From Amphibalanus amphitrite (lineage: Eukaryota), in the NCBI RefSeq assembly GCF_019059575.1, contig NW_024881521.1:601297-665296 (forward strand): a stretch of DNA of 64,000 nt, written 5' to 3'. The notes below the pieces were generated by a model. The model did not search any database. It saw only the letters and a list, made by a program, of their open reading frames with translations, and was not told the origin of the DNA. Made by a program: the position numbers and the translations under genes. Shown here in pieces: positions 8,650-55,595 of the stretch. Positions within the stretch are counted from its first letter, which is position 1. Every line of letters starts with the position of its first letter.

Positions 8650-9705
8650 GTGAGTCAACGGGTCTGTCGGTGATACATTGATCAATGGGTGTTGCTGATT
8701 TTCCCGGCCTCTTCTTTTTCATCAGTCATTTTCCGTGAGTCAGTCCGTTGTTCATTTAGTCGGGTAGTTATTTCAGCCAACCGGTGAGCTAGCCTGCCAG
8801 TCATTCACCGTGTCATTTACCTACCCATTCCCGGCGGCCCAACCCCACCCCTCCATATTCTGGCTGTTGGAGCCTGTTGTGGCTGGGGTTATGTAGACAG
8901 TATACACACTGTCGTTGCGGCGTTCGGTCAGTTGCCGGGCGGTGTCCGGTGGTAGTATTTCCTTTACCACCCTGTTGTGTGCAGTGTGGGCCGATGGCCT
9001 GTCGGCCCGCGATACGGCGTCGGGCGCCGTGTTACCATCCGGGCCGCCATGGCGACTGGGACGGGGTGTGGGGGCCGCCGACCATCCGATTCCCGAGACA
9101 AGGATGTGAGATGGGGTGGCCGCCTGGCGCACACGGCGTGGGCTTATCTTCACTGACGGGCTGTGTGCCAGACGCTATGTTGTGTAGCTCGCAACAGAAC
9201 AAAACGTGATTGATTAGTAAACGTAATGATAACATCCTCCTCTCCGTCTTCGCTTCTTCCTGGGCTCATTTCGCTGTGAAACTACCGCAGTATTTGGTTG
9301 TCTAACACACCATCTCCTCTCCCTTCCTCAGCTGGGCGTGGTGTGTCTGGAGCAGGGCCTCCAGGCCCAGGGACTGGAGTTGTATGCTCTAACACCCCTC
9401 CCTCCCCCTTCTCTCCTCTCTGTTACAGCTGGGCGTGGTGTGTCTGGAGCAGGGCCTCCAGGCCCAGGAACTGGAGTTGCGTACTCTAACACCCCTCCCC
9501 CTCTCTCCTCTGTTACAGCTGGGCGTGGTGTGTCTGGAGCAGGGCCTCCAGGCCGAGGAACTGGAGTTGTATGCTCTAACACCCCTCCCTCCCCCTTCTC
9601 TCCTCTCTGTTACAGCTGGGCGTGGTGTGTCTGGAGCAGGGCCTCCAGGCCCAGGAACTGGAGTTGCGTACTCTAACACCCCTCCCCCGCTCTCCTCTAT
9701 TGCAG

Positions 9706-9987
9706 CTGGGCGTGGTGTGTCTGGAGCAGGGCCTCCAGGCCGAGGCGCAGGCCTACCTGGACAGAGCGCTCGAGCACGACCCCGACCACCAGCAGGCGCT
9801 GCTCAACTCGGCGGTGATTATCCAGGAGGAGGGGCCCCCGGAGCGGCGGCCGCTCGCCTACCAGCGGCTCCACCGGCTCATCGCGCTCCGACCGTCGGCC
9901 GTCGGACTCGACAGGGTCTACTTCAACCTGGGCATGCTGGCCATGGACGACCACGACCTGGTGCCCGCCGAGGCCTGGCTCAAAAAG
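9706..9987 (+). CDS. TMTC-family exon, TPRs (LGVVCLEQGLQAEAQAYLDRALEHDPDHQQALLNSAVIIQEEGPPERRPLAYQRLHRLIALRPSAVGLDRVYFNLGMLAMDDHDLVPAEAWLKK)
   Basis: ttgcag acceptor at 9700-9705, aag|gtgagt donor; this is the last of five tandem acceptor+exon-start copies, and which copy is used in vivo cannot be told from sequence. Confidence 0.65.
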
Positions 9988-23548: not shown

Positions 23549-24900
23549 CAGGGTGTCCCAGAATTACCCGGACATTGTTAATTAGCGTATAAAATAAGGC
23601 AAACATGATTGCGCTTTTTTCTTTTTGTCGTCCTATATAGTCAACTAGGGTGGCTGTGAAATAGCACATGCAATAGATACGCTTGTTACAAGATCAGCCG
23701 ACAATGATTGAAAATGCCAGCCATTGCTGGTCTCAGTTGTTTTACGGCTCTCCCGAAACTGGGCGAAGGCCTGTTTTCTTTGACCTGTTGCCGGAGGATA
23801 ATACGATCATATAAGATAAACTTAACATCAAAGTGTTCCCGGGTCATAAGGCTTTATCCCCCAAAACAAAAATTGCTGCCTACACCACTTTTGCCGCGTT
23901 TTTTACATCTGAAGTGGAGAAGCTCCATGTCTGAACATGGCGGGACCTTTGGCTTCCAATAGATTTGATTTCCAAAACAAACCCGTTCATGGCCATTTGG
24001 TTTACGGCATCCAGTTTTTTTACTGGTAGAATATTACCGCAGTAGCACTTTGTGCTAACGGCTGTCGTTGGGCCATCATATCAAGCCCAATGAGTGCACG
24101 GTGGCTCAAAATGTCTCACAATTTGATTTTCGACGGGTGCCTGGCCGTCTCTGCTGTTGGGGCGTTGTAGCCATCTGACGTTCACACAAGCCTTTTTCGG
24201 GCGGTTCAAATGACAGAATACCTTCGTTAGACCACAAAGTGTGCTTCAATATAATTTTTGTTGTATATGTTATATTTTTGGGATGAATTGTAGTGATTTT
24301 CGCTGCTTTTCCCGTAGTTTTCGCATCTTTTTCAGGCGAGGGACCCCAAATTCCAAAATTTTGCGAAGATAGTGGTGGAAAGTAGACTGATGTTCTTTAG
24401 ATAATCCTGATCTATCGTTTTGCTAGTTTTTAGCTAGATCAGTGACGTTTGTTGTCCATGACAAGCAACCACCCGTTTGACAACTGGTGCATGGCCCTTT
24501 ATGGCCGAGCCCAAGCTTGTCAATCAGGTTTATCTCTTGCTCTCTCTGGCTTCGTTAGCTGATATAATTGCGCTTTGCTCAATCCTAACTGCTTGCAGAT
24601 GAGCTGCTGAAGCTCTCCAGCGAAAACCATGCCGAAAGTCCGTTTACAAAGTTGAAAACGGGAGTTGATTGACCATCGTTGCCTATAAGTGGCTTAAGCT
24701 GAAAACGGAAAAGGACTACTCTTACTTGACTCTAGATAATACTTGACTCGAGTTGTTACCGGCCACCAAAAGCACACAGTCCCCAAGCTTGATAGCTTAG
24801 GGATATCTTATAAAAGTATGATGCTTGTATATCATTAGAATCGAGCGCAATCGTACTTTTAGCCAGAAAATAAATGTCCGGGTAATTCTGGGACACCCTG
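23549..24900. mobile_element. non-autonomous Tc1/mariner-like element copy B (~1.35 kb), direct tandem neighbour of copy A, 10-bp spacer
   Basis: termini cagggtgtcccagaattacccggacatt / aatgtccgggtaattctgggacaccctg, TA at 23547-48 and 24901-02; internal sequence about 80% identical to copy A. Confidence 0.8.
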
Positions 24901-25326
24901 TAGCTTCATGTCCAATTTATCGTGTTAAAGGTTGCATTATCATGCAGAAGCCTTCACTTTCATCACCTGGCTTCTGCATGTACTCACCCTAACAATAGAC
25001 CAACCAACCAGGCCCTGTGTACCAGGCCAGCCTTGTTGAGGTCACATGCTATTCATGTAGGTATTTAGATTTAACACTGAAGAAACTGGGGTTGTTTTGG
25101 AATCGTCATTATGGCCAGGCTCCAAGTTCCACCACAGGCTAAGGTGGATCAAATGTTTTGTAATCCAATATACCTACCTAATCTATGGGACAAATGATAA
25201 ACTAGTTGACAGTCAGTCTGACTGAATGTGAAATGCCCATTTAGAGAATTGTATAATATTTTTACCTGTCAATGCCCAGTAGCTGAATGTTAACTTTTGT
25301 TTCAGAATTGAAAAGGAGACTGCAAA

Positions 25327-27791: not shown

Positions 27792-29299
27792 GCGCCGAGT
27801 GCGGTCATGGTTTCGAGTGCTCATCGGTGGCACGCGGCGCTAGCGCTGGGTGCCCGAGGCAGTGATGGGTATTACGGTCACCAGTTGGGACTCGGCCTGC
27901 CCTGCCGCCGTTGGGAGAGATGTGGTAGCGGCTGGGTCTACTGCTTTTAGTGATCGGTTGCTGATGAGTGCTCTGGTCGTCGCTGCTACTTTCAGACGAT
28001 CGGGATAGGTGTTGACTGTTGACCGATCCACAGAACGTGTTCTGAGGAAACGGAGTTTTCTCTCCCTCATGTATCTACCTGCCCGTTCTGCGCAGTGTTG
28101 AGGCTTGTATCGAGGCGGGCAACAGGCTCGCGCCTCCGTCCGTCCGTCCGTCCGTTTGTTGTCTCCAGCGCTGTGTAAATACGTCCGTCCATCGGCTTTC
28201 TGCCGAACATCCATTTTGTCTGAATCTCCCCGGCAGTCAGCGTTATCGAGACTGTTTGTAACATTCCAACTTGTCGGGTTGCTTCTGATAGCCGAGGTAT
28301 TACTGCTGGTATGTAATTGATGTCACCAAATGTGTCGACTCTGGAAGCGTGCTGGGACGTAGCTAGCTGTTTGTGTAATCCATTCGCAACTCGCATGCTT
28401 GCGAGTTCATCTGGAGTGCTGGTGGCTGCTGATTTAGTCCGTCCAATGCACCCGCAGTGAATCAATAATTGATGTGCGTTGTTTTTTAATTAAGCTCGTA
28501 CGTTGCACACCCCGTTCGTAGTTCTGTTTTAGATTTGCACGCTGAGCTTTTTGGCTAAATATCGCTTACCATTCCCCGTGAAATACGCTGGGATTGCTAG
28601 AGAATCTCATCGCTTATCATATTTCATCGTAGTTTTCTACGCAGTACGCGTATTTTTGGAATATACTGCCTATTATACAATCGGCGTTTGCGTCGGTCTA
28701 CAACTTTTGTGGAAGAATCCGAGTGGAGAACACACGCGGGATATATGATCGGTTGAGCTTTCACCGTTGTCCTAGCACTTCGACAAGCGTAATCTGAAGA
28801 GAATGAAACTAACCTCTGGTGATGAGAGCTTTCAAAAGCTGCGTGGCTTTTCCCTGGTTCTGGATTTTGTTGTGAAAATTCAAATAGGCAAAGCACGCAA
28901 TTTTATTCAACTGAGTAAATGCGGCGTTGTTGGTCCAAGGACAAAAGACAAGCAGACAAAACGACAATTGCTTGGCATGGAATACACGATTTTGCAGGAT
29001 ATCTATCAGCATGATATTTACTACACCAGCAGAGATGCCACAATACACCCCTCCAAAATAACGAGAGACCGCCAACGCAAGCGCCAAACCCGTGCATTAT
29101 ATCACCTGGCACAAACATGCAGCCACAGACACCGATTTACATGACTAGTCAGATCTCTCGACTACGTTCGCTTCGTTCGAGCCCGGCCTGACGTGGCGCT
29201 AATTTATCACAAGGCGCGTCGGAGCGGTGCGTTGTCCGTGCCGCCCGGTTTTCTCCGTCAGCTGGAGGTCCCGGGTGGCGGTGGTGGCCTCTCGGCAGG

Positions 29300-29470
29300 T
29301 CAGGCGGGCGCGGCGGCCGGCCGGCGGCAGGCGCCCGGTGACGGCGGCCCCGTCTCGCGCTCCGTGAGCCCGGCCTCCAGGCGGGCCACCATGGCCGGCA
29401 GGTGGCAGAAGTAGCGACTGGCGGCCACGTGCCGCAGACGCACCCGCTGACACAGCTCCGGCCCGTACCG
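29300..29470 (-). CDS. terminal coding exon of IQ-motif gene (RYGPELCQRVRLRHVAASRYFCHLPAMVARLEAGLTERETGPPSPGACRRPAAAPA*)
   Basis: ccccggcag acceptor; TGA at 29300-02 (minus strand); phase-consistent with upstream exon. Confidence 0.55.
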   Translation of the reverse strand, partial: RYGPELCQRVRLRHVAASRYFCHLPAMVARLEAGLTERETGPPSPGACRRPAAAPA

Positions 29471-29756
29471 CTGCCGGGGAAGAGGAGTACAGCCACAAAA
29501 CGGTCAGTACCGCTGTGAGGGAGATGAGGTACGGTCACACTCGTCAGTACCGCTACTGGGAAGAAAGGAGAGGAGCACACCGGTACCTGATACATATATT
29601 ACAGGCCGTACTGCTAGCTGGAGGTGGGAGAGTTTGGACAAAGCACACACTGGTCACGCGAGAAGTATAACGAGACACTGAAATCATGATTGGTATAGCC
29701 GTCTCGTTCCTGGATCGTCATCCACTTTAAGAACGCACGCGCACCTCCAGGTGTGT

Positions 29757-29942
29757 CATCACTGACCTGCTGCGGCTTTCCGAGCTTGTAGTGCGCCTCG
29801 GTCTCGTCTCTGGTGAGCAGGACGCAGTTCCAAGGCGTCCAGGGCTGTTCCACGTCCCAGCGGCAGAGCAGCAGCTCATAGAGGTCCGGATCGGCGCTCA
29901 GGCAGGACTGGCCGCCCCACAGCGACAGCACCAGGTGACGGA
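29757..29942 (-). CDS. IQ-motif gene exon (ESDFRHLVLSLWGGQSCLSADPDLYELLLCRWDVEQPWTPWNCVLLTRDETEAHYKLGKPQQ)
   Basis: tgttacag acceptor, cag|gtcagt donor; ORF 29614..29961. Confidence 0.65.
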
Positions 29943-30361
29943 AATCAGACTCCTGTAACACATGAAAGACAGAGGTGGTATGTCAGACAGGACTGACCGC
30001 CCCACAGCGACAGCACCAGGTGACGGAAGTCAGACTCCTGTAACACACAGACAGAGGTGGTATGTCAGACAGGACTGGCCGCCCCACAGCGACAGCACCA
30101 GGTGGCGGAAGTCAGACTCCTGTCACAGAAACAAATACATGTGTCAGACTCATTAACCTGTCCCATACCCAGATCATAAGTCACACGTAGGCCTCGCACA
30201 CACATGGGTAGCGAAAGTCGTACACCTTTCTCACACCGTATGTAGCGAGGAAAGACTTGCCAGTGACCAAACCCCACGCACGCTCCCCGTACTTCGACTG
30301 CAGGCTGTCCTCTCTCACATATACTAGAGTACCACTGACCCGTCAGTAATCCTCCGCTGAC

Positions 30362-30497
30362 CTGTATGAGGCAGACGGCTGCCGAGCCCGGTGACCGGTT
30401 CTGTTCGTCACGGCGCAGCTCTTCCAGCATCTTCCCGAGCACGTTGTTGTCGTGACGCCGCAGCGCCCAGTTCTGCAGCTGTTCACACATACGGCAC
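30362..30497 (-). CDS. IQ-motif gene exon (R-CRMCEQLQNWALRRHDNNVLGKMLEELRRDEQNRSPGSAAVCLIQ)
   Basis: ccctcag acceptor, cag|gtcagc donor. Confidence 0.6.
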
Positions 30498-30777
30498 CTG
30501 AGGGAAAGTAGCGGGACGGAGCGGTAAGGATGGTTGGTGGTTAGTGGTTACACATCTAACTAGAGTTGAAGCCAACGACAGAGGCACTCTGTACTGCGCA
30601 CAAGTCACCACTAGGCTGTAAAAAATAAGACAATAATGGCATTCGCTAGCTGCATTATTTATGACGGCATAAGTCCTTAAGTCTGATATGGGACATCAGT
30701 TCATTCACGACCCCTAAATCAATATCCATCCCACTGCACTTTCCCACACCCACCAATTCCCCGCCGCTCTGACGTAC

Positions 30778-30890
30778 CTCCTCAGGGTAACGTCGCTGGC
30801 GTCCACCTGGAACTGGTGTCTCGGCAGACAGCGGTGGCACGAGGTGCACGTGTTGACGTCACCGCGGATCGACTCTGGGTCCAGCGGTAC
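30778..30890 (-). CDS. IQ-motif gene exon, Cys-rich (VPLDPESIRGDVNTCTSCHRCLPRHQFQVDASDVTLR)
   Basis: gtgcgtcag acceptor, ag|gtacgt donor. Confidence 0.6.
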
Positions 30891-31155
30891 CTGACGCACG
30901 TCAAAACAAGGCACACGTCAGTCGGGGACAGTGATGGTGACGGCAGACATCATCCAAAAGCAATAAGGCGAGATGAGGAAAATTTACAGGCAGTGAAGCA
31001 ACATGTGTAAGCATCATAGAGTATTAGCAAACATCATGAAAAAACGCGGTAAATTATGTACATTTTTATCAGCCAGGATAGTATCAAAAGTGGACCCTGT
31101 TAGCTAGCCATGCCAGACCCAGCAGAACTCCTAGCCACTGTGGCCTAGGACGCAC

Positions 31156-31341
31156 CTTCTGGCATTTGGCCGAGGCCGGGTTGAAGTTGACATCCCTCAG
31201 CAGTCGCCAGAAGAGCTGCAGGGAGCGGTGTCTCAGGCCGGCCAGGTGCCGCGGCGTCACCCCGCGCGACAGCAGGTCCATCTCGCGCTTACAGAGGTCC
31301 CGCAGCTCGTGGTTATCGGCCGAGAACGGCAGGCCGGCGAT
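31156..31341 (-). CDS. IQ-motif gene exon (IAGLPFSADNHELRDLCKREMDLLSRGVTPRHLAGLRHRSLQLFWRLLRDVNFNPASAKCQK)
   Basis: tccgcag acceptor, aag|gtgcgt donor; 62 codons. Confidence 0.65.
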
Positions 31342-31682
31342 CTGCGGACGGATGGGCGTTAGAAGCCGAATAGGAGGGAGAAGCGCGGATATGTCGCACA
31401 TCTGACTGGCTAACAATCGACCGAATAAAATGATGGTTACCAAACTCACTCCGCATGATAACGTATTACTCCTCTTATAATATGAACACCAAAACAGATT
31501 CAACAGTGCTCACGGTAACCGAAACAACACATTTTAACAAAAAGATGCCCACCATATGGTCCCACCCCCCAAAACCTGACAACTTCCATAACTCAACGTA
31601 TTGACACCTGTCACATGATTGCGCAAAATACACGTAATCGTGCGCTGATTTTCTCACCCTCCCAAGTCCGATCCAGTCTCAC

Positions 31683-31847
31683 CAGGTCGGCCAGCGTGGC
31701 CAAGATGTCTGACCGCTCGTCGGCGCTCAGCCCGGGCAGGGTCAGCGAGGTGTGAATGTCGCGCAGCTGACGCGCCCACAGCGTCACTGAGTTGTCCACC
31801 GAAATGGGCTCGCCGTCACGGCCCTTCCAGCGCAGAGGTGCCTGCGT
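31683..31847 (-). CDS. IQ-motif gene exon (TQAPLRWKGRDGEPISVDNSVTLWARQLRDIHTSLTLPGLSADERSDILATLADL)
   Basis: cttgacag acceptor, ctg|gtgaga donor. Confidence 0.65.
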
Positions 31848-32159
31848 CTGTCAAGAGAGGGGAGTAAAGGGCTTAGACACAGTGTAACTGCTGATACAGG
31901 CACAGCATAGGCGACTCGCTGTCATAGAGAGGAGTAGGCAGCAACACAAAGTACGTATGCCTGACCCTGCTTTAAACGACGCAATGCAAGTTTGATTTGA
32001 CGAGCCGGCCTGTGGTAGGCAGTGCCATTCAAAAGTGTCCATGCAACGTCGACTTATGATTCGATAACTATTTTCCCGAACCAAGAGCGTTGATCTGAAA
32101 TATCATTACATGTTGAGTTCAATCATAGTACCTATTAGACCAATCCAAACTTCACGTAC

Positions 32160-32426
32160 CTTCTCCAGCAGCCGGTGTATGCGTTTGGCCTGTCCGCAGG
32201 CGGCCGCGCGGCTCTGATGGCCGTTGATGGCCTTCAGCATCTCCGCCTCCTGTTCCAGCAGCTGACACAGCGCCGCCTTCAGCTCACCACCCGACTTGGT
32301 GGAGTAACAGTAGGCGATGGCCTTCTTCCGCCAGGCCTCCAGCGAGCTGAACAGAATGTCGAAGTCGTTCTTGCTCTTGGGGTCCATCTTCCGCTCGACG
32401 ACTCCGGCGCGACGCTTCAGCCGAGC
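32160..32426 (-). CDS. IQ-motif gene exon (ARLKRRAGVVERKMDPKSKNDFDILFSSLEAWRKKAIAYCYSTKSGGELKAALCQLLEQEAEMLKAINGHQSRAAACGQAKRIHRLLEK)
   Basis: ORF 32106..32462; gtcccag acceptor (one of several possible), aag|gtacgt donor. Confidence 0.6.
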
Positions 32427-32669
32427 CTGGGACCCAGGCCGAATACAGGTCAGCGTCGGCAATAACGAACAGAATTACAGCAACAGCTGCAGATAAGAGG
32501 AGGAAATGATCGCCATGAGAGAGATAAGCTACAAAGAAAACATTAACAACACTAAATCTAAGATAGGTCAATTAGTGTTCAGTGTGAGCGTTGGTCACTC
32601 GACTAACGTTGCAATGCCGCACTCCGGAGTCTCTGGTGACCTCCGATGACCCAATGACCCGTATCTGAC

Positions 32670-32789
32670 CTGTTTGCGCCGTTCTGCGTCGTCCACAATC
32701 CACTGGAGCACGACATCCCGCTCCCTGGCCATCCGCTGTACCCGGCGACGGGCCAGCCAGCGGCGCCAGTACTTCTGTAGAAGAATCGC
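32670..32789 (-). CDS. IQ-motif exon (AILLQKYWRRWLARRRVQRMARERDVVLQWIVDDAERRKQ)
   Basis: IQxxxRGxxxR-like calmodulin-binding motif (LQKYWRRWLARRR); ccaccacag acceptor, cag|gtcaga donor. Confidence 0.65.
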
Positions 32790-32904
32790 CTGTGGTGGAG
32801 AGCGTGAATATCGTCAGACAGGGGAGTAACACGGGCCAACCAGCGGCGCCAGTATTTTTGTAGAACGATCGCCTGTGGTGGAGAGGGAACATCGTCAGAC
32901 AATT

Positions 32905-35450
32905 GGGGCCTATTGTTGTTGTTGTTGTTGTTCCCCCTGGGACCTCCTTACGGAGGACCATAGCCGAGAGGCTCCCTATGGCGAAGGTAGCCGGCCTCCA
33001 AGGCAGCCACCAGGTCGGCGTCCCGCAGCCGCGACGGGTCGACGTGAATGCTGCCAGTTAGCCGCAGGCGGGCGCCAGCGAGGGCCGGGCAGCGGAGCAA
33101 CACGTGCTCCGGCACGTCCGCCTCTTCCCGGCACACGGCGCAGAGCGCCGTGGGGCACCGCTTATCGGGGCACTGCAGGCATGCCACGGAGGGGTGGCGG
33201 CCGATCCGGTGCAGGTATTGGAGCGAGCGGCCCCAGTGGCCCACCCTCCACTGGTGCACCGAGATGGCGGCCTCTCGGTCCTCTCCGGGGATGGGGAGCG
33301 GCAGGGTGCTCCCGAAGATAGCCTTGAAAAAGGAGTCGGGCCAGTTTTCGCGCCACTGACGTGTGGTCGTCCGATGAACTGCCCGTGTCAGGGGCCGAGC
33401 GTCCGAGGGCACGGCGCCCTGGGGCAGGGTGGCCGCTTGCTTGGCCAGGGCGTCAGCGCGCTCGTTCTCCGCCAGCCCGCAGTGAGCAGGGACCCACTGC
33501 AGGGTCACCTGCCGGCGCTCGGCAATGTCCAGCAGCGTCCTCCAGATCGCCGCGCCGAAAGTGGAGGTCTGGGCGGCCGCTCCCGCGCTGAGGAGGCTCA
33601 GGGCGGCTCGTGAGTCAGAGCACGCCACCAGCGGGGCGGGGGACGGCTCATCCCGGACCCGCTCCAGCGCCGCCCTCAGGGCGAACAGCTCCGCACGGGT
33701 GCTGGAGCAGAGGTCTCCCGCCACCACCTCAACCTCGAGAGTCTCCCCCGACGCGGTAAAGATGATGGCGCCGCCCCCTCGCCTCGCCTGACCCCAGCGT
33801 CCGCAGAGCCGTCGGACCAAATCCACGTGGCCTGGGCTGGGAGCGCCGCCAGGTGCTGCCGCGCGGCCTCTCGTCGCGTCTCGTTGGAGGAGGCTCGACG
33901 ACCGCCGGGTCCCACGTCCAGATTGAAGGCGATCGGGCGGCAGGTTGTCCACGGGAGGAGGGGAACCTCGAGGCGCGGCTCCACCGTCACTCCCTCGGCG
34001 CCCGCCTCGATCAGCGCCGATCGCCCCAGTTGTCGCCAGCCGGTGGTAGACCGCAGTCGAGTGGGTGGGTCGGCCTCCGCGACGCGGCGAAGAGGGTCGT
34101 CCTCCGGCAGGGCGAGCGCTCGGCAGAGCGTTCGCGCGGCCAGCGTCTTCCTGGTGGACCATGCTGAAGGGATGCCAGCCTCGGCCAGCAGGGGATCCCT
34201 GGGGGTGGACCTTGGGCATCCGGTCACCACCCGGGCTGCCGCCAGCAGCTCGCGCTCCACCAGCTGAACGTGTGACGGGGACGCGGCCGGGAGCCAGGCA
34301 CCCGCTGCGTATTCAAGGGCTCCCCGGACATACCCGTTCGCGACTGTCCTGAGCTGCGCCTCGCGGAGACCCCAGGCCCGGCCGGTCATCCTCCGCAGCT
34401 GTGCCGTCCGCGGCCGGACCTTCCGCCGCAGCAGAGAGTCGCAGTGGTCTTTAAAGTGTAGAAGTCTGTCGAAGGTCACCCCCAGAAGATGTAGGCTGGT
34501 GCCACCGGTGACCTGCGTGCCGTTCGCCAGGAGTTGCACGCCGCGCTCGTCCCTGCTCCGCTGAGTCAGCAGCAGCGCCTGGGTCTTCTGTCCGGCGATG
34601 GACATCTTCCAGTGCCTTGCCCATCGGGCCAGGGCGTCGGCCGACTTCTGGGCGCGAGCCACCGCAAGCTCTACGGTGGCTCCAGCGCTCAGTGTGGCCC
34701 TGTCGTCCGCATACATCAGGACGTCCGTGCGGTCCGAGGCGTTCCGCAGGGTCTCGATAAGGTCCGCCGCCCAGAGCGTGTAGATGGTCGGTGCCAGGAC
34801 CGAGCCCTGCGGCAGGCCCGCGCGGAACACGCGCTCGCTGCTGTGCGCGCCGTTGACCTCTACGCGGGCCCGCCTGCCGCGAAGGAACCGGAATTTCCAG
34901 GTCGCGAGACATCTGGGGAGGAGCTTGAGGAGCTTCAGGTGCAACATCCGGTGATCGATCGTGTCATAGGCACGGGAGAAGTCGAACGCCAGGAGGACAA
35001 AGCGGTCCGCCGTCACGCCATCCTCCGGGCCTCGTCTCGGCTTGGGGCGATTCCAGCCATCTTGAACCGTTTGGACCAAGCGGGCCAGACTGTCCTCCGC
35101 CGACCTCCCGCGGCGGAACCCGACCTGTTCGGGGGGCACCAGTCGGTCTCGCTCGATGAGGTAGGTCGTCCGGGCCGCGATCATCCGCTCCGCTAGCTTG
35201 GCGATGTGACTCGTGAGCGCGATCGGGCGGTAGCTGCCCACTTGTTTGGGGTCTTTGCCGGCCTTAAAGATAGGGATGATGGTCGCCCGTCGCCATGAGG
35301 CGGGCGTCTCGAGGTTGGACCACGATCTGTTGATGAGTGCCAGAAGGGTCCGGTAGGCCGTCGGTCCGAAGTGCCGCAGGTGTTCGGTGCATACCCGGTC
35401 CGGTCCTGGCGCCTTCTTCGTCCCGAGGTGTCGGATTTGGTCGTCGGATT
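32905..35450 (-). mobile_element. 5'-truncated, frameshifted RNase-H-containing non-LTR retrotransposon (I/R1/LOA-type): RT, RNase H, C-terminal CCHC finger
   Basis: rc ORF 33676..35676: RT motifs (GPD.., FADD-equivalent YADDRA..); rc ORF 32948..34219: RNase H (..WVPAHCGLAENERADALAK) and C..C..H..C finger; (CAA)n 3' tail at 32918-32936; ~70% GC, unlike the host introns. Confidence 0.85.
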
Positions 35451-35883
35451 GGGGCCTGTCTGTGGGAGAGACACACAGCCCAACAAACGACGCCAGTACT
35501 TCTGCAGAACGATCGCCTGCAGAGACAGCGGGAGCATAGTCAGACGCGGGGAGACAGTCACACGGGCCAGCCAGCGACGCCAGTGCTTGTGAGGAACGAC
35601 TACCTGTGAGGGCGAGGGGAAGACTGTTGGTGCGTGTGGGGGGGGGGGGGGGGCACGGCATATCAGCGAGAGGCACAGATTGTCGCTGATATGGACCAGA
35701 CCACTGTCAAGTGTCAAAATAAATTATTTTTACAAGCTAAGCGAAATATGTGAGGGTACTTGATTGTTTATGAATGGTTAAACATAGCGAAGCTAGTTAT
35801 AATTTCCAAAATCCCACACCATGGCTGTAATACTGTTTGTGAGCATGCCGCCAGTGCAAGACCCAGCGCGGCGCCGCTCTCAC

Positions 35884-36065
35884 CTTATCGGTTCGCAGCT
35901 GGAGCAGTTCGTCAGCCGTCTGGTAGGCGCCGCTGTAGGACAGCACCCGCTCGCGCCGGTGGTCCTGCCACACACCCGGTTTGGGCATCTGGGTGCACGT
36001 GTCGCGGTTCGTCTGCACGGCCGCCGGCAGGCCCCATGCTGTCTGCGCGTCCCGCTCGTGGCGCT
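35884..36065 (-). CDS. probable upstream exon of the IQ-motif gene (..RHERDAQTAWGLPAAVQTNRDTCTQMPKPGVWQDHRRERVLSYSGAYQTADELLQLRTDK)
   Basis: tcgtccag acceptor, aag|gtgaga donor; phase-compatible with exons at 36.5, 37.1 and 37.5 kb and with the IQ exon. Confidence 0.5.
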
Positions 36066-36428
36066 CTGGACGAACGGACGGTTAAGATCAATGGCGCTGA
36101 CAATTCACGACCTGACACGAGTTGCGAACAGGCGTGGGTCGAGGACAGGCCCGTTGGGTCGAGATTTCGAGAATATGGGTCAAAGATCACGATAGCACAT
36201 GGTTCACGGACAACGGTCACAGACGCGGATCACAGAAAAATGGCACGGACACGGTCCTGAACACGGATCACAGTCTAGCACGAGGTTCACAGAGGGTTAA
36301 AGACACGGATAGTGGGAACCAGTCAGGGACACGGGCCACCGACGGTTTAACACGCGATAAGCATAACTTCAACGTAGCTGCCGGTAGAGTCCGCGGCACT
36401 CCGCGCTGCTCCGAACTGAAAGACTCAC

Positions 36429-36587
36429 CATAGGCGTAGTTTCTGAAGGGCCGAGTGTAGGTCTGCGCGGTGGCGTGCAGGTACTCGGTGCCGTCCCGTT
36501 TGTCCCGGTATCCGCCTAAGAACGGTTTCTCGCCGTCTCCCGGCTCGATAGCCACCGAAATGGTCCGCCGTCCGCCGTCCTCCCCCT
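36429..36587 (-). CDS. probable exon (..GEDGGRRTISVAIEPGDGEKPFLGGYRDKRDGTEYLHATAQTYTRPFRNYAY)
   Basis: ctgtgcag acceptor, g|gtgagt donor; ORF 36268..36555. Confidence 0.5.
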
Positions 36588-37079
36588 CTGCACAGGACAG
36601 AGTGGCGAATAGGTCAGATATGTCACGCTGAACTCAGGGCAAGGTATTGGTTCAGTTCGTAAGGTATAGCTGATACCCTAGGAAGTGTCATTAAACTGTC
36701 GTTGAGAGGCACCCCAAGTAGCCAGCACCATGAATGAACAACATTCGCGTTTGCATAAGGCTTACCTTTACCAGGAGGCATGAATGGGGAATGCTTAGTC
36801 ATTAATTGAGCAAATCAAACCATCTAGAACGGTCAATAGACTGAGACACCAACTTGAAGTGTCCGGTATGACTCCACGCTTCTACGGTACAATTCTACGG
36901 TATTTCATGTGCAGATCTACCAAAAAGTAGTAAAAGATTGGGCAAAGACCATGCAACTACAAAGGACTAATCCCAAAACATAGCTCACAACCGAGTCTAC
37001 GAGAGGGGACCCTAAGACCTACCCTCCACAAGGCAGCTCACTGTGACTAACCTGCACGGCGGAAGCTCCGGGGACCGAC

Positions 37080-37257
37080 CTGTGTGCACGGTGACGGTCC
37101 GCACGCCGCCGCCGCCCGCTCCCGGGCCGTCAGACGAGGACGGTCGCCGGCGCACGATCCTCTCCAGCACATTCAGCACGAACCCGGGCTGTTCGAGGTC
37201 CAGTCCGGCCAGCACCAGACTGTCCGAGACCGGCTCCGTGCCAAGGTAGATCTCCAG
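37080..37257 (-). CDS. probable exon (LEIYLGTEPVSDSLVLAGLDLEQPGFVLNVLERIVRRRPSSSDGPGAGGGGVRTVTVHT); donor position uncertain
   Basis: tctcacag acceptor; weak gtcggt donor chosen for phase compatibility (alternative gttagt donor 27 nt downstream). Confidence 0.4.
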
Positions 37258-37454
37258 CTGTGAGACAATCACAAACGAGGATGGAAGGTCACAAGCAGAC
37301 TAAGACGATCTGACAAGTAACCTCACATCACTGTCTACGTAGAATTGCACAAACAACCACAATCGTAACATTTTTAACTGTAACATTGACTGTCACCGAA
37401 CAGTGGCTGTATTTATCCCGTTTAGCCGCCGTCCTGTGCCCCCACGCCACTCAC

Positions 37455-37622
37455 ATCATCCGGATGGTAGTTGAGGTCGCCAGCCAGCACGGCCAGCACC
37501 TCGCGCATGTTGTAGTTGATGTGGAGCTCCTTCACGAGGCGCCGGCCACCGGCCACCACGAACGGAATGGCAACCTTGGGCGCAGAGTTGGTCCGCTGCA
37601 GACTTCGGTGCACCCCAATACC
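37455..37622 (-). CDS. probable exon (GIGVHRSLQRTNSAPKVAIPFVVAGGRRLVKELHINYNMREVLAVLAGDLNYHPDD)
   Basis: cctccag acceptor, gat|gtgagt donor; 56 codons; looks like an enzyme/Rossmann-like segment, family not recognised. Confidence 0.5.
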
Positions 37623-40099
37623 CTGGAGGCGGGGACATGGAACTGAATGGTAAATAGGCTACTGAGGATGAGCCAGCTTCACTGCCTACTGCACAGATTG
37701 GCCTGGCACCATCCTGCCTGAACGGCAGTGACATGCAATTTGTATGTAATATTAATTCATTATGGCCAGTCACTGCAATTAAATTTTGAAAATTAGCAGA
37801 AGAATGGGTTAAGTTTGACTTTTACAAAAAGTTCACACTGAAAGCAGAATGGAACTCCTGGTCATATGTGAGAGGAATAACCTCAAACCACATTTTGAAA
37901 AATCCAGAGTATGCAGTATAAATGAATTGTCGTTCACAAAACGAGAAAAGTGCAAATGCATGGATCAATTTATAAAATATGATAGTGAAAGACAACAAAA
38001 CAATTATTACTGCATTCACAAAACCACAAAACTTACATTACGGTCTTGGTGAGTTGAGTTGACCGCCATCGTCACCCTCAGTCAGCTGGAATGTTGATCT
38101 CCAGATGGTTCACACTCTCCCTGAAAAGGATATTACAATCAATAACAAAGCTAAAGCTTAAGAGTCAAGTGTTAATTTTTTTTCAGCCCGGCAGGGTGGT
38201 CCATTAACTGATTTTTATCATGGCTAATCTTAGTCTCTACAGGCTGTCGCACGCAATACTGCTGGTCTTTGAATGATGGCCCACCAAGCCGATCCCGGGA
38301 CACGTCAGTCGTCCAAGCCCGCCAGTATTGGGGCGCGTCATTCGTCCCATCCCACCTGTCCCCGAGCCAGCACACGTCATTCGTTCCACCCTGAGGCCTG
38401 ACCTGACCCCAACGACACCGGGGCAAGTTATTCGTCCTCCGCCTATTGAACATTGGAGTTCGTAGGTTTGGGGCTTTCTGAGAAAATATGAAATTCATTT
38501 TTTTTAAAGGAGCGATAAATGAGATCCCATTGCAGGAAGCAGACAACAGGACCCAATCGCGTCCCCGCATCAGATACTTTTTCTCAAATCACGTCAGTCC
38601 CGCAGCTCAGTTGGTGGAGCGTTGAGCTCAACGGGTGACAGCCCGGTTTGTTCACATTCGCTTTTTGGATCGCGCGAGCGCTCCGTTCCTATGAAAGCAT
38701 CGCGCGACGCCTCACCCCACCATTGGAGACGCCATTTCTGGCGAATACGCGGCCGGGAGGCGAGGACGGAGCCAAACGCTCCATCGGTGCAGAGTCCACC
38801 GAGCAGCCCCAGCCGATTTCGGCGATATCGGCTAGCTGGCTGCAGTTTCGAGTAGTACCAGGCAAAGAAGCTAAACAGTATGATCATATTCATGCTGGAC
38901 ACCCAAAATGGAATGTGAGAGAGGATTTACATGCCTAACCAGAACAAACCCATTTGGGTCTTGACCCATTTGGGTCTTGATCAGCTTCCACATAATCAGT
39001 GCCCTACACTAGAGCTATCTTCCACTCTGACAGGATCCCCAAAATCTGCCCCACTGGCAGGAAGCCATGAAACTGTCTAGTGTCACTTGTCAGCATTCAT
39101 GAGTCAAGTGCACCAATGCCAATACCATTGAGCCCCAGTGTGTAAACCAGTACTTGCTGTGATATTATGCATGCTGGGTGCTGGCAGGGTAAGGGATAAG
39201 GGCTATGTTCAGCAGGGACATTGGCAATTGACAGTGTGAGGATACACTTTAGATTAATCAGTGCACTGCAGATCCAGACTGCAAAGCATGGCAATGTTAA
39301 TTGTTAATAGGATCTTGTCAGTGCACAGGCAAACAGGTGGTGCATGGTGCTGTGCTGATTTCCAATGTTGGAGTGTGGATTTTGCTTGGAGCTGTACAGC
39401 TGGCCCCAATGTGCCACTATACTGAACTGCTGTCCTTGCACATTCACGCCCACGGGCATCACTTTTCCAAAATTGGTAGGGCTCTAATGATCAATTATAG
39501 ATCAAAAACTCTTACTCTGACTCTGGGCAAAAGCAAAACTGCTGACTCCAACTGACTCAGACCCCGGCCCCTAGCGGCCATCCCTGACCCTGCAGTTGAT
39601 GACTCTGACTCCAACTCTGCAGCACTAGTTTTGATATCATAAGTGCATATATCTCGTGCATTTGGGGGCAAAAATTAATGGGTCCTGTTGGGTACAGCCT
39701 GGTGTGGCTTTCTGGTGTTTGGCATGGGCTGGTGCAGATTTGTCGAATGAGCTTGTGAGTGTCATTGTCTCTGTTGTCTCACTTTGCAGTGCAGGTGCAG
39801 TCTGCCCGGGCCCTGGAGAGTGGTCAACAGAACAGCCCAATTAACCATGAATCACAATGAAAATGCGGTATCGGTAAAGCTGGCGTCACCCTCACCTCGT
39901 TTACTCTTCTCGTTGGTTCCTGCATATCTTTGGAGTGGTTTCAAAGGACAGTCAGAGAGGAAATGAGGAACCCGCACTGCTCGAGACGCGCCAGTCATCA
40001 ACGGAAACAATGCACATGTTAACATTCGCTAAGAGAATGACTGGTATAGTGCGCCTCCGGTGACATTATTACCAAAACATTGTCAGGCTTTCTGGAGTT

Positions 40100-41243: not shown

Positions 41244-44200
41244 CAGTAGGCGGAACTATGGTCAAGCGTACCCATTTTCGGGAACGCATTTTCGTTCCCA
41301 TGTTTGGGAACGATAAACCCAAATATGGGAACGCCATGTAGGCATTATTTAAAACAAGAAAAAGAACCGTTAAATGACGTCCAAAAAAAAAAAAAAACGA
41401 TCGTGAACCGCCTGATATTTGTCCCAATATTGTTGGGAAAGAGTTTGATATTGTAAGGCCCATCGTAGTTTCAAATCGTTCCCCTATTTCTAAAGCAGTC
41501 CATCATCCGGGCCGCGAGCCCAAATTTGGGAACGCTCTCGTACACTGGCGCTGCAAGCGTTCCTTATTATGGGAACGGCGTACCCAAAATTGGGAACGAT
41601 TTCACCGACGCCTTTCAGGGGCTCTTTTCATTAACAAGCATCACGTCCAACGCCGCAAATTATTGTTAACGCAACAATCATCAGATGACCTTTCCGGCAA
41701 GACCGTCGCATGTTACGCCCGGTCTTCTGCGCTTTTATTCCCGTCGATCTCGCAGCGGGCACGCCCCCCTCTGCAGGATTACGTAGTTCACAACGCTCAG
41801 CGATGTTCAACAAGGTCTTCCATACCTATATCCACCGTCCGCGCCGAGGGTGGAGACATGTCAAGCACCTGTCTGTTTATCACCGATAGTTGACGAGCAC
41901 AAGGAAGTATCCAAAAATGGGAACGCTGAATATGTTACACCCTCAAAACACCTAGTCCCAATGAAAATCTAGTTTTTTCCTTTCTTGATGGGTGTAAGTG
42001 GCAAAAGGCCTGGTAGGATGGGCACGAGGAATGATCGAGATCAGCATAAAAATTATAAATAAGCCACACAAAGCGACCTATATAAGAGAAATTCCCCCAA
42101 AACGATCGTGCTTAGAAACACGGAAGACAAAAATCACGCTCATGACGCTCCTTATAAAACAACGCTTAAAGGGACTGTCCCACCTTAACATTAGATTTGA
42201 GTTGAGATAGCCATCTTGATGGACGTTCTTTGAAAATCAGTGCCGTGAAAACCGTTTCTCCAGCAATTACTTCATCGCAAAGAAATTTGAGTTTGATTTT
42301 GACATCTGTGCAAATAAGTGCCACAATGTATTGGTATAGGCACTTAAATCTGATGACGTCATCAGGCTTTCGAACGTCCGTTAAATGTTTGACTAAAACG
42401 TTTTGTAGCACGCGGTGGTATATGCTGCGTTGCGCGCAACAAATGCCGCACTTTTAAATAAAGTCGCTAGGAACAGCGGAGATCCCAAAAAGTAAACAAA
42501 AGTAAAAGTCTAATATCTTCAAAACCGGTGAATATTTTTCGGTGAAATTTGGTAGATATTCGTTTTCGCTCTTTCTGAACCGAGCGACATCACTTTCATG
42601 CCAATTCATAAACTTTTTTAAAGGTGGGAGGGTCCCTTTAACAGCTAGCATCCAAATAAAATATGTCTTTCCGGGATGATAAAATACAGCTGAATAATTT
42701 TAAACCACTGAAACCGAGTTTACAACAGTAGTTCGGTAAAATCACTGACGTTCCACGCGGTCGTGCGCCCCGACACCAAAAGTCAACAATATTACCTCGG
42801 GACTGTCCGCGTGTTCGCTTGCATATGTCAGCATCTGGTGTCGCTAGTATGAAACTTCATAACCAGGCGAAAATTATTGTACTTGACCTCAAAATGTAAA
42901 AAACGCTTCATTTTCCTTAAAATTGCAAGTTAAATGTAGTATAACCCATGTTTTCACCATTCCGTCATTTCAAAAAATCATTAAAAATATCATTCGACGG
43001 TCAATTTCCTTGTGCAACGGTCAGATTAAAGATAATTTTATAGAGACTTAGTACGTAACCGGACAAATCTTCGTATGGCAATTCTTCGTCGCGCAATTCC
43101 TCGTCCGCATTTCTTCGTCCGCAAATCTTCGTCGGCGCATTTATTCGTGTCGCATAACTTCGTCTCGCATTTCTTCGTAAGCGCAAATATTCGTAGCGCA
43201 TTTTTTCGTATCCGCATTTCTTCGTACGCGCATTTCTTCGTCAAGCATTTTTTCGTCCACGCATTTCTTCGTCTACGCAAATCTTCGTCCGCATTTCTTC
43301 GTCCACGCAAATCTTCGTCTGCGCATATCTTCGTCCGCAAATCTTCGTCCCCGCAAATCTTCGTCCGCAAATCTTCGTCCGCATTTTTTCGTCCACGCAT
43401 TTCTTCGTCTACGCAAATCTTCGTCCGCATTTCTTCGTCCAGCAAATCTTCGTCCCGGCAAATCTTCGTCCGCAAATCTTCGTCCGCCAAACTTCGTCCG
43501 CAAATCTTCGTCCGCAAATCTTCGTCCGCATTTTTCGTCCACGCATTTCTTCGTCCACGCAAATCTTCGTCCGCAAATCTTTGTCTGCGCATATTTTCGT
43601 CCGCAAACCTTTGTCTCCGCTATCTTCGTCTCCGCAAACATTCGTCCACAAATGTGGTTCAATAAAACCATGAAGAAATATCAGACCATCAAGTGATTGA
43701 CGAATTTAATGCATGGAATGGATGATCGAAACTTTTGAAGTCAGGTAGATGGGGTCTGTCCGGTGAAGCTATTGTATTTGGGAGCCGAGAATTGAAACAT
43801 TCCATATCATGTGTCCCGGACATTCTTTTTTCGCGGTCGATGAATGACAATACAATCTCTTGTACCCTCGCCGGCATAGGCGGCGGAACGGGGAGGGCAC
43901 CGGGGCACCGTTCCCCTCTTTAATTTTGGCCTTTTAACAGTAGCCCTATGGGCGTTGCATGGAAAGAATGGGACTAAAAGTCGGCAGTGCCGTGCCCCCC
44001 CCCCCCCCCTAATTGAATGTGTTCCGCCGCTACTGCTCGCCGGACCTATTTGTTTTCTACATATACGCCGGCCGAGGGGGGCGGGTACGACCCCCCCCCC
44101 CCCCCATCGCCGTTTCGCCACTGGTGGAGCTAGCGCGTCGCGGAAAAAACGAGCGTGTGCGCCGTTACGAGACGCAGAGGTTAATACCCGATTTTAAGGC

Positions 44201-45925
44201 CTTCTAGGTCAGGGGTCGGCTTACAGCCCGCGGGCCGGATCCGGCCAGGAGGGTGACGGTTGGATCCGGCCCGCGACCATCTGACGTCCGGCCCGCGCAA
44301 GTTTTGTCTAGAAGTAGAATTAGACAAAAACACCCGCAAATGGTGTTTATAAACTCATGAAGTGTGCGAAGGAAGAACTATTGTGCCAAAGCACATTTAA
44401 GTCACTTTTATATCGGAGTCGATTTCTGAAGGAACCGCGGGCCGGAACACGATGTAAGTCGATGATACCAGCCGCGGGCCGGACGTCAGATGGTCGCGGG
44501 CCGGATCGAACCGTCACCCTCCTGGCCGGATCCGGCCCGCGGGCCGTAAGCCGACCCCTGACCTAGAAGGCCTTAAAATCGGGTATTAATCTCTGCGTCT
44601 CGTAACGGCGCACACGCTCGTTTTTTTCCGCGACGCGCTAGCTCCACCAGTGGCGAAACGGCGATGGGGGGAAGGGGGGGGGGGTCGTGCCCGCCCCCCC
44701 CCCTCGGCCGGCGTATATGTAGAAAACAAATAGGTCCGGCGACGGCGAGCAGTAGCGGCGGAACACATTCAATTAGGGGGGGGGGGGGCTTGGCACTGCC
44801 GACTTTTAGTCCCATTCTTTCCATGCAACGCCCATAGGGCTACTGTTAAAAGGCCAAATTAAAGAGGGGAACGGTGCCCCGGTGCCCTCCCCGTTCCGCC
44901 GCCTATGCCGGCGAGGGTACAAGAGATTGTATTGTCATTCATCGACCGCGAAAAAAGAATGTCCGGGACACAAATGATATGGAATGTTTCAATTCTCGGC
45001 TCCCAAATACAATAGCTTCACCTGACAGACCTCATCTACCTGACTTCAAAAGTTTCGATCATCCATTCCATGCATTAAATTCGTCAATCACTTGATGGTC
45101 TGATATTTCTTCATGGTTTTATTGAACCACATTTGTGGACGAATGTTTGCGGAGACGAAGATAGCGGAGACAAAGGTTTGCGGACGAAAATATGCGCAGA
45201 CAAAGATTTGCGGACGAAGATTTGCGTGGACGAAGAAATGCGTGGACGAAAAATGCGGACGAAGATTTGCAGACGAAGATTTGCGGACGAAGTTTTGCGG
45301 ACGAAGATTTGCGGACGAAGATTTGCCGGGACGAAGATTTGCGTGGACGAAGAAATGCGGACGAAGATTTGCGTAGACGAAGAAATGCGTGGACGAAAAA
45401 ATGTGGACGAAGATTTGCGGACGAAGATTTGCGGGGACGAAGATTTGCGGACGAAGATATGCGCAGACGAAGATTTGCGTGGACGAAGAAATGCGGACGA
45501 AGATTTGCGTAGACGAAGAAATGCGTGGACGAAAAAATGCTTGACGAAGAAATGCGCGTACGAAGAAATGCGGATACGAAAAAATGCGCTACGAATATTT
45601 GCGCTTACTAAGAAATGCGAGACGAAGTTATGCGACACGAATAAATGCGCCGACGAAGATTTGCGGACGAAGAAATGCGGACGAAGAATTGCGCGACGAA
45701 GAAATGCCATACGAAGATTTGTCCTGGAATCGACTTAGTAGATACTTAAATTAGCGTGCACTTTTTTGAGACGTGATGCACTAATGAGTTTTAGTGGGCG
45801 AACGGCCGAAAAATTAACTTCCGTTCTCATAAATGGGAACGCCCGTTCCCATATTTGGGAACTCCGTTCCCAAAAATGGGAACGTTCCTATATTTGGGTA
45901 CTCATGACCATAGTTCCACCTACTG
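41244..45925. mobile_element. ~4.7 kb non-autonomous TIR DNA transposon; ~30-bp TIR CAGTAGG(C/T)GGAACTATGGTCA(A/T)G(C/A)GTACC and GGGAACG subterminal direct/inverted repeats
   Basis: left terminus 41244-41273 is the reverse complement of right terminus 45897-45925; multiple T(T/A)GGGAACG motifs at 41285-41620 and 45815-45890; no transposase ORF. Confidence 0.7.
43061..45735. repeat. Foldback-like long palindrome (~2.7 kb, arms ~1.3 kb, centre ~44390); arms consist of a minisatellite of ~12-13 bp units (cgcaaatcttcgtc / cgcatttcttcgtc); centre is itself a GC-rich hairpin
   Basis: 43061-44200 is the reverse complement of 44570-45735; the RKSSSA/ADEDLRTKICG 'ORFs' on both strands are translation artefacts of the tandem array. 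Confidence 0.85.
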
Positions 45926-54703: not shown

Positions 54704-54854
54704 GTCACGGCAAATCGACTCAGTCGGCGCTGTCCGCCATCACCAGTCTGAAGAAGCTGTGCAACCACCCGGACCTGATCTACGAGAAGGTCACTGAGCC
54801 GGGCAGTGAGCTGCGCCATCTGCTGCAGCTCTATCCAGACGGACACTCGACAAA
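54704..54854 (+). CDS. RAD54L: RAD54L exon (GHGKSTQSALSAITSLKKLCNHPDLIYEKVTEPGSELRHLLQLYPDGHST-)
   Basis: matches ..SSITSLKKLCNHPALIYDK..; cgccag acceptor, aa|gtgagt donor. Confidence 0.85.
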
Positions 54855-55396
54855 GTGAGTCGGGGACTCGGGAGGCAGAGCTAACTCAGACAGTCAGACG
54901 GACACTCGACAGAGTGAGTTAGAGAGTCAAGACGAACTCAGACAGATACTCCGTGAGTTTGTCAGGGATGACAGTCCTGCCCAGACGGACTCGCGATATT
55001 AGAGGCTGTCGGAAACTAGCAAGGTCCGTATAGGTTACAAAGTAGGGGCATCCCGTGAAGCAACTGAATGACTAACCTGCAAACACCACCACAGTATATC
55101 ATTCTCCCCTCCTGTGTCCACCAGGCGTGTCCGCGTCCACTCGTATCTGAAATTCCGCAGTCCGCACCCGCCTGTCCGCCAGACGAGTCCGTCCGGAGCT
55201 GTCCGGCAGCTGGGTGTCTGTGTCAATATCTACCCGCCCCTGTCCTCCAGGAGAGTCCGTCCGGACCTGTCCGGCAGGGTGTCTTTGTCCTCTAATATCT
55301 ACCCGCCCCTGTCCTCCAGGCGAGTCCGTCCGGAGTTGTCCGGCAGGGTGTCTGTGTCTTCTGATGTGTCTAATACCCCCTCCCTGTGTCCACTAG

Positions 55397-55595
55397 ACGC
55401 GTCCGTCCGGAGCTCTCCGGCAAGGTGTCGGTGCTGGACTACCTGCTGGCCCTGGTGAAGACGCAGACCAGCGACAAGGTGGTGCTCGTCTCCAACTACA
55501 CGCAGACACTCGACCTGTTCGAGACCCTCTGCCAGATGCGCAGCTACTGCTTCGTCCGGCTCGACGGCAGCATGACCATCAAAAAACGCGCCAAG
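55397..55595 (+). CDS. RAD54L: RAD54L exon ([67 protein letters not shown])
   Basis: matches [65 protein letters not shown]; acceptor (cactag) is the last of four tandem copies. Confidence 0.85.

Follow-up and report, generated by a model that had tools for sequence, protein, structure and literature searches.

A tandem array of splice-acceptor copies, split by a LINE insertion, in an IQUB intron of the barnacle Amphibalanus amphitrite

The stretch analysed here is 64,000 nucleotides (nt) from contig NW_024881521.1 of the barnacle Amphibalanus amphitrite (hereafter the window, in whose coordinates positions are given unless another locus is named). On its minus strand lies a multi-exon gene for IQUB (IQ and ubiquitin-like domain-containing protein), in one intron of which copies of the intron's own acceptor junction stand in tandem, interrupted by a long interspersed nuclear element (LINE). 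The joined translation of the local exons was 100% identical to the A. amphitrite RefSeq IQUB protein, and the exons downstream of the IQ motif matched the IQUB-like domain PF25805 (5.7e-38). When RefSeq isoform X1 (P0010) was threaded onto the window, 13 coding exons and 12 introns resulted. Coding exon 5 (35884..36065, minus strand, placed by exact threading of X1) ends in ...LQLRTDK followed by gtgaga and is the upstream exon of the array-bearing intron; coding exon 6 (32670..32789, minus strand, 120 nt) reads AILLQKYWRRWLARRRVQRMARERDVVLQWIVDDAERRKQ and holds a single IQ motif, which the Pfam model IQ (PF00612) scored at E=7e-4 and 19.6 bits, just under its curated cut-off of 20.3. The intron between them, intron 5, measures 3094 nt; the IQUB introns other than this LINE-bearing one measure 197-492 nt. 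Isoforms X1 and X2 both read ...LQLRTDK/AILLQKYW... (slashes mark splice sites throughout), joining exon 5 straight to the proximal acceptor, and the acceptor that the original prediction had assigned to exon 32670-32789 is therefore the one used by both RefSeq isoforms. A single IQ motif (IVLQSYWRRWLA), of the form (I/A/V)I(V/F)LQS(Y/F)(W/A)RRW(L/I), is present here in orthologues from a sponge, a fish and unidentified transcript assemblies. A first homology search with the IQ exon returned no barnacle fragments of the exon, and an Rfam scan of 28000-39000 gave no match.

On the coding strand, the end of intron 5 and the start of exon 6 form the last of four head-to-tail units, all of which consist of a pyrimidine tract, CAG/G and then 42 nt of exon 6 type. 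This four-copy array, previously proposed from the letters alone, was recovered by three approaches. A repeat search (family D1) placed four copies in register at 32748-32802, 32831-32885 (91%), 35475-35529 (69%) and 35562-35616 (76%). Tandem Repeats Finder (TRF) reported the adjacent pair at 32748-32901 (period 83, 1.9 copies, score 248). Finally, the exon-start 30-mer matched three sites with at most three mismatches and none in 100 shuffles, the fourth copy being more diverged. Each unit joins 41-56 nt from the 3' end of the intron to 42 nt of exon 6, so that its length is 83-98 nt and not the ~73 bp given earlier. In three of the four units, a branch-point-like CTGAC lies 20-25 nt upstream of the AG.

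Unit 1 (32748..32830) is the functional junction and combines the last 41 nt of intron 5 (32790-32830) with the first 42 nt of the IQ exon. The 3' portion of unit 2 (32831..32901) comprises CTGAC, a pyrimidine tract, CAG and the pseudo-exon 32831-32872, while the 5' portion of its spacer (35458..35474, gtgtctctcccacagac) is, according to the empty-site reconstruction described below, cut off from the rest of the unit by the LINE. Unit 3 (35475..35561, 87 nt) has an intron-derived part at 35517-35561, with CTGAC and CTGCAG, and a pseudo-exon at 35475-35516. Unit 4, probably the oldest pseudo-junction (35562..35640, upstream limit approximate), contains a pyrimidine tract, CAG and the pseudo-exon 35562-35603. 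All four lie on the minus strand. The copies that the original prediction had located at 32818-32890 and about 35455-35625 are thus real, with their pseudo-exons corrected to the bounds given here. Translation of the 42 nt gives AILLQKYWRRWLAR in the real exon, AIVLQKYWRRWLAR in copy 2, AIVLQKYWRRLLGC in copy 3 and VVVPHKHWRRWLAR in copy 4. Just upstream of unit 4, at 35638-35692, intron 5 also carries a G16 run, which reads C16 on the coding strand, and after it a short inverted repeat able to form a hairpin, ATATCAGCGA...TCGCTGATAT.

Divergence within the array is graded. Identity of the exon-derived and intron-derived parts, respectively, was 88 and 79% between units 1 and 2, 81 and 61% between units 2 and 3, and 71 and 49% between units 3 and 4; the exon-derived part of unit 4 was 71-76% identical to those of the other units. 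Copies 1 and 2 differ by four synonymous codon changes and one non-synonymous change. At the position where the live exon encodes Leu, copies 2 and 3 retain the Val of the orthologues (AIVLQ) and thus preserve an earlier state of the exon. The Q of the IQ core is missing from copy 4, and the final basic residue (terminal R) from copy 3.

The inserted element is a 5'-truncated non-LTR retrotransposon (32912..35447, minus strand; 2536 nt, ~70% GC) with reverse transcriptase (RVT) and RNase H domains, belonging to a family that the sources call either 'jockey' or 'BS'. Its minus-strand open reading frames (ORFs) matched RVT_1 (3.8e-24) and RNase_H (4.7e-13) in Pfam, its 3' tail is (AAC)6AAT at 32912-32932, and it has one frameshift, near 33780 in the RNase H region. 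The earlier placement of this LINE at 32905-35450 identified the right element but not its exact bounds. Comparison of its flanks revealed a perfect 10-bp target-site duplication (TSD), ATTGGGGCCT on the plus strand, which is also their longest common substring (10/10) and lies at 35448..35457 at the 5' end of the LINE and at 32902..32911 at its 3' end. Over 566 amino acids, the element is 97% identical to A. amphitrite protein P0132 (residues 387-951 of 1061); the copy is 5'-truncated, as this alignment begins only at residue 387, with true identity from about residue 395, that is, window ~35442. Judged from its 5' truncation and the RNase H frameshift, it is a dead copy; dead, truncated copies are usual for LINEs. 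The family has many A. amphitrite copies with 96-98% protein identity, and members also carry an endonuclease domain (PF14529/PF03372); the 64-kb window holds no second copy of this LINE. At the 5' junction (35443-35457 compared with 32890-32911), the element starts with CCGACGA and the target past the other TSD copy reads CTGACGA, a microhomology such as is found where 5'-truncated LINEs join their target. The GenBank A. amphitrite models P0135, P0183, P0212, P0221 and P0225 (SPAG6, HPS1, odd-skipped-related 2, exportin-4 and RNF13) also contain LINE domains for reverse transcriptase or RNase H; it appears that ORFs of intronic LINEs were taken for exons there.

When the LINE and one TSD copy were deleted in silico, a contiguous array of four units with spacings of 87, 98 and 83 nt was restored, and the insertion point fell in the unit 2 spacer, just upstream of the unit 2 CTGAC. 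This bears out the proposal that the element landed in a pre-existing array. In addition, units 1 and 2 have diverged by 12-21%, more than the members of the LINE family (~97% uniform), and the array therefore predates the insertion.

According to RefSeq isoforms X1 and X2, with which the orthologous proteins agree, splicing of intron 5 appears to use the exon-proximal acceptor only, and the upstream copies are best read as silent pseudo-acceptors. The real IQUB donors have G at +5 in 12 out of 12 cases and G at -1 in 10 out of 12, whereas the pseudo-donors (T/gttaCt, T/gtgtCt and T/gtgaCt) all lack the +5 G and carry T at -1. The spacers between copies 4 and 3 and between copies 2 and 1 measure 45 and 41 nt, compared to a minimum IQUB intron of 197 nt, and read-through from the nearest upstream acceptor would add 83 nt and shift the frame. 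The mRNA would remain unchanged because only the exon-proximal acceptor leads into a full exon with a good donor, while the pseudo-exons would have no usable one. The two ORFs noticed earlier, 35193..35717 and 32603..32902, exist as read-through frames outside the annotated protein, and the view that they are spurious IQ-like ORFs holds as far as the RefSeq models and the single-IQ orthologues show. Third codon positions account for 25 of the 45 differences between real exons and their copies (p=0.002), a bias that fits a constrained real exon and drifting copies and does not require coding constraint on the copies themselves. The upstream copies of the arrays were also considered for selection on their pseudo-acceptors; AG is present in 13 of 14 such copies, where ~11 would be expected at ~10% divergence, and the comparison is uninformative.

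Besides the intron 5 array, the window contains at least four other junction arrays, located at another IQUB exon, in a TMTC3-like gene, and at an acceptor and a donor of a RAD54-like gene. The second IQUB array (29898..30131, minus strand) has three copies with a period of 82-85 nt and the consensus acag/GAGTCTGA.TTCCG.CACCTGGTGCTGTCGCTGTGGGGCGG.CAGTCCTG.CTGA. Its unit consists of the acceptor plus 55 nt of exon 12 (ESDFRHLVLSLWGGQSCL), and the last copy alone continues into exon 12 (29767-29952) and the protein. All six differences from the real exon 12 are synonymous and at third positions. The exon-derived tail of these copies reads TGTCTGAC, which is branch-point-like, and the live exon reads TGCCTGAG. 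In the TMTC3-like TPR gene (9301..9745, plus strand), five copies with a period of ~97 nt (...ctctgttacag/CTGGGCGTGGTGTGTCTGGAGCAGGGCCTCCAGGCC.AGG) run up to and into the real exon, which starts at 9706; a higher-order period of 187 nt at 97% identity points to recent expansion by duplication of two-unit blocks. The RAD54-like intron (54855-55396) has donor copies at its 5' end and four acceptor copies at its 3' end. The acceptor array (55166..55433, plus strand; period 66-69 nt) reads ...cctgtcctccag/GCGAGTCCGTCCGGAG.TGTCCGGCAGGGTGTC, with the real exon from 55397. On the donor side (54838..54955, plus strand), the real donor GACGGACACTCGACAAA/GTGAGTC at 54838-54861 is followed by a copy matching at 23 of 24 positions (54897-54920) and a degenerate third at ~54936-54955.

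Together, junction arrays make up five of the ~8 arrays in the window with a period of 40-150 nt, while positions whose duplication could span a junction occupy, by a rough estimate, about one tenth of the window. A further array of 48-52 nt (12648-12814, ~2.5 copies, TRF) directly follows ...ctttacgcag/GTAGCC and may be boundary-associated or lie in an exon of an untranslated region. Exonic arrays in the window are in-frame only, for example the 33-nt, 11-residue repeat in an ORF of 1182 amino acids. This low-complexity ORF (59715-63263, minus strand) contains, at 60385-61039, an in-frame minisatellite of 33/99 nt with ~25 SPRQEPHFSQP-like 11-mers; its orthologue in the metagenome contig L001 (7970-11812) of a related barnacle has arrays of 30, 33, 36, 57 and 60 nt, all multiples of three.

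Junction arrays also recur outside the window. Three loci of an independent A. amphitrite assembly yielded five more: one acceptor and one donor array in XPO4, one acceptor array in HPS1 and two acceptor arrays at consecutive exons of RNF13 (L007 4898-5034 and 13038-13184; L008 38279-38550; L009 16400-16499 and 16930-17092). This brings the total to 10 junction arrays, mostly at acceptors, in ~174 kb of A. amphitrite sequence. In one of the RNF13 arrays, a copy reads GGCTGAC and the live exon GGCTCAC. Among metagenome contigs of related barnacles, the RAD54-like intron in L001 (593-1520) carries 12.4 donor units of 75 nt and a single acceptor, that in L002 (1-450) many shorter donor units of ~45-60 nt and a single acceptor, and in L004 the intron is absent; the arrays of this intron all differ between the window, L001 and L002. 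A recent gain of the RAD54-like intron from an intronless state such as that of L004 was considered and rejected: a leafhopper RAD54 gene has an intron one codon off in the same phase, making loss in the L004 lineage at least as likely. A naked-mole-rat match proved to be a retrocopy and is uninformative.

We consider it very likely that the IQUB array is a 'mirage'-type minisatellite, that is, a tandem duplication of a segment over the 3' splice site of exon 6 that was later split by a young, dead LINE copy. From the sequences we infer that replication slippage or unequal exchange repeatedly duplicated a short junction segment, and that three extra units ended up in intron 5, where they would decay as pseudo-junctions. 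New units would have been born beside the functional junction, probably one at a time, since divergence rises with distance from the exon and since the exon-derived halves are more alike than the intron-derived ones, even between two pseudo-copies. With the functional junction as the source, the exon half would be constrained and the intron half free to change. After unit 2 had formed, the LINE would have entered the unit 2 spacer by target-primed reverse transcription, generating the 10-bp TSD and lengthening intron 5 from 548 to 3094 nt. Some unit boundaries lie near CTGAC, and reverse transcription of a lariat intermediate that stopped at the branch point was therefore considered as a source of the units; it was rejected, as the boundaries do not fall consistently at the branch point and donor-side arrays exist.

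Several points weigh against this reconstruction. The similarity of the exon halves may also stem from gene conversion or constraint, and neither a LINE-free allele nor an orthologous IQUB locus came up when both RefSeq isoforms were looked up exactly. That the upstream acceptors are silent is deduced from RefSeq models and sequence arguments. In all three upstream copies, the CAG is intact and the 42-nt segment is open, in frame and followed by GT, which would allow in-frame inclusion; copy 3 or copy 4 could moreover be spliced in singly with flanks of normal size (367 or 280 nt upstream and ~2.7 kb downstream).

These last properties, together with the mostly synonymous changes between copies 1 and 2 (4 vs 1), are what could be expected if the upstream copies were cassette micro-exons (42 nt, phase 0-0, AG...GT), each adding a 14-residue IQ-like motif and so providing variable calmodulin-binding sites. 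However, the upstream segments occur in neither RefSeq isoform, orthologues have a single IQ motif, the pseudo-donors lack both the -1 G and the +5 G, and the 45- and 41-nt spacers are far below the minimum intron. The motif itself is damaged in copy 4 (Q of the IQ core) and copy 3 (final basic residue), the corresponding segments of the other arrays run 28, 40 or 50-52 nt to their best candidate donors and are out of frame, and constraint on the real exon suffices to account for the third-position bias. We therefore regard a cassette function as unlikely, well below the level of serious expectation. A similarly small but slightly larger chance is left to the possibility that the units were copied from a coding segment, intronless or spliced, over the exon 5-exon 6 junction, with the array, and perhaps intron 5 itself, arising by intron gain of the Rogers type. 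The intron part of unit 3 is colinear with the end of exon 5 (CGTCTGACTA--TGCTCCCGCTG vs CGGCTGACGAACTGCTCCAGCTG), a score reached by 3 of 1000 shuffles; the 7-mer CTGACGA recurs in units 1 and 2, about equally far from the junction; and the alignment of the intronless RAD54-like relative L004 extends beyond the donor by 10 nt and beyond the acceptor by 8 nt. Yet non-cognate pairs of units and exons reach similar shuffle values (~0.01), units 1, 2 and 4 are not significant, and intron 5, compared at its true ends, gave 3/12 and 3/12 matches, the same as the average of non-cognate comparisons and thus no sign of cognate similarity. Ordinary IQUB introns likewise gave no cognate end similarity, and the ESDF and TMTC3 arrays are without such a signal. 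The TMTC3 intron position seems to be common to other arthropod contigs, and the leafhopper comparison suggests that the RAD54 intron is probably old.

The two remaining explanations concern the repeat itself. Collapsed or expanded haplotypes or long-read stutter might have produced it during assembly, considering that barnacle heterozygosity is high (nucleotide diversity pi ~0.05 in Balanus glandula) and that one amphioxus mirage was reported to be mis-assembled in a draft genome. Against this, divergence between the copies is 9-50%, one unit is interrupted by a LINE that has its own TSD, and arrays of the same kind were found in the second, independent A. amphitrite assembly and in the metagenome contigs of related barnacles, all of which makes an artefact highly improbable. 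Even less credible, to the point of being virtually discounted, is the idea that copies 3 and 4 (35455-35625) belong to the LINE as 5'-transduced or element-internal sequence, so that no split array would exist. One ORF (33676..35676) does run from the copies into the reverse transcriptase. Its family homology, though, begins only at residue 79, at ~35442, the preceding 78 residues over copies 3 and 4 being without LINE homology; copies 3 and 4 are thus host sequence. In addition, the perfect TSD at 35448-35457 sits between the LINE and the copies, and the copies align to units 1 and 2 across the element. The LINE derivation of 35455-35625, named at the outset as what would overturn the idea of a split array, is hence contradicted: this sequence has no homology to P0132 and its bases align to copies 1 and 2.

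The recurrence of such arrays raises the question of whether splice junctions are preferred seeds of minisatellites across the barnacle genome, through a duplication process that targets exon-intron boundaries or a property shared with amphioxus, which is likewise a hyper-polymorphic invertebrate of the sea. We put this forward tentatively and think it rather unlikely. In a simpler reading, short duplications may be frequent in GC-rich genic DNA, with selection sparing those that are in-frame and exonic or intronic and hidden by splicing. The present data fit either the selection reading or a junction-targeted mechanism.

By itself, the IQUB array represents ordinary genome decay; what makes it interesting is how densely such arrays occur in this barnacle, together with the new host group. 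Such arrays add 150-450 nt to introns that otherwise measure 200-500 nt and place competent-looking decoy splice sites and open, in-frame pseudo-exons beside real exons, giving rise to spurious ORFs. The decoys can also mislead simple exact-match threading of a protein onto the genome. At the same time, the arrays keep earlier states of the exons, such as the ancestral Val in the IQ motif, and the LINE provides a relative date, as the array was present when a 96-98% uniform family was active. If seeding at junctions holds true, mirages would be a major and continuing way in which introns lengthen, and would now and then give rise to new exons or introns; if genome-wide enrichment holds true, barnacles would be tractable for studying how spliceosomes ignore tandem pseudo-sites and whether repeats seed introns or exons.

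Other repeats were observed elsewhere in the window. Two arrays of ~590 bp with units of 14-16/30 nt (43064-43653 and 45131-45721) are inverted relative to each other and ~1.5 kb apart, and look like the subterminal repeats of a DNA transposon. A block of ~1360 nt is tandemly duplicated at 22187-24902 with 81% identity, and a dispersed 200-nt repeat occurs at 17704-17909 and 19522-19717.

The closest known counterparts of the IQUB array are the 'mirages' of amphioxus, tandem repeats over exon-intron boundaries described in troponin C, the globins BflGb6 and BflGb9, and PGBD5 (PMC3087553, PMC3902484); Adh3 is also named among them in these two papers, which cite the original report. Mirages of both boundaries are described there, their units measure 10-160 nt, splicing is left undisturbed and copy number varies among haplotypes (PMC3087553, PMC3902484). 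By its sequence, the IQUB array has the structural features of a mirage minisatellite: as in amphioxus, the unit spans an exon-intron boundary, splice signals are duplicated and the extra copies are intronic. Both the amphioxus mirages and the barnacle arrays lie at 3' or 5' boundaries, have units of tens to ~160 nt and comprise 2-6 or more copies. Normal splicing has been reported for amphioxus mirages, whereas for the IQUB array it is read from the annotation. Amphioxus mirages turn over fast in copy number and unit between haplotypes or taxa; on the barnacle side, the RAD54-like intron differs in its arrays between the window, L001 and L002, which may reflect such turnover. The hosts differ, a barnacle being an arthropod and amphioxus a cephalochordate; amphioxus is similarly heterozygous to barnacles, which is a coincidence and not evidence. 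In contrast to the near-identical units of amphioxus, the IQUB units are old (49-88% identity), and their array can be dated relative to a LINE. Within the literature covered, our search found no report of the mirage class in barnacles, in other arthropods or otherwise outside amphioxus, so that the class is here extended to an arthropod.

Three further systems share parts of this pattern. In human F7, the first unit of a 37-bp variable number tandem repeat in intron 7 spans the exon 7 donor, the pseudo-donors are competent but silent, and experiments showed that choice of the first donor follows 5'-to-3' scanning (PMC1557585). As in IQUB, the minisatellite started from a splice junction, and splicing goes to the site next to the exon. 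The F7 repeat, however, is on the donor side with the first site used, while that of IQUB is on the acceptor side with the last site used, as known here from sequence and annotation. Short tandem acceptors such as NAGNAG sites resemble the IQUB array in having several acceptor AGs in tandem at one exon start, but there the AGs are spaced by 3-9 nt, depend on a common branch point and lead to isoforms with subtle in-frame differences, whereas the IQUB units are 83-98 nt long with acceptor signals of their own. In the Rogers model, introns are gained or slide when a tandem duplication crosses proto-splice sites, with cases in Drosophila (PMC2891723). As in that model, a short intragenic duplication at IQUB yields paired AG and GT, and the duplicated DNA becomes intron with the mRNA preserved; the difference is that the model duplicates an exonic segment and creates a new intron, whereas the IQUB duplication spans an existing acceptor and lengthens an existing intron.

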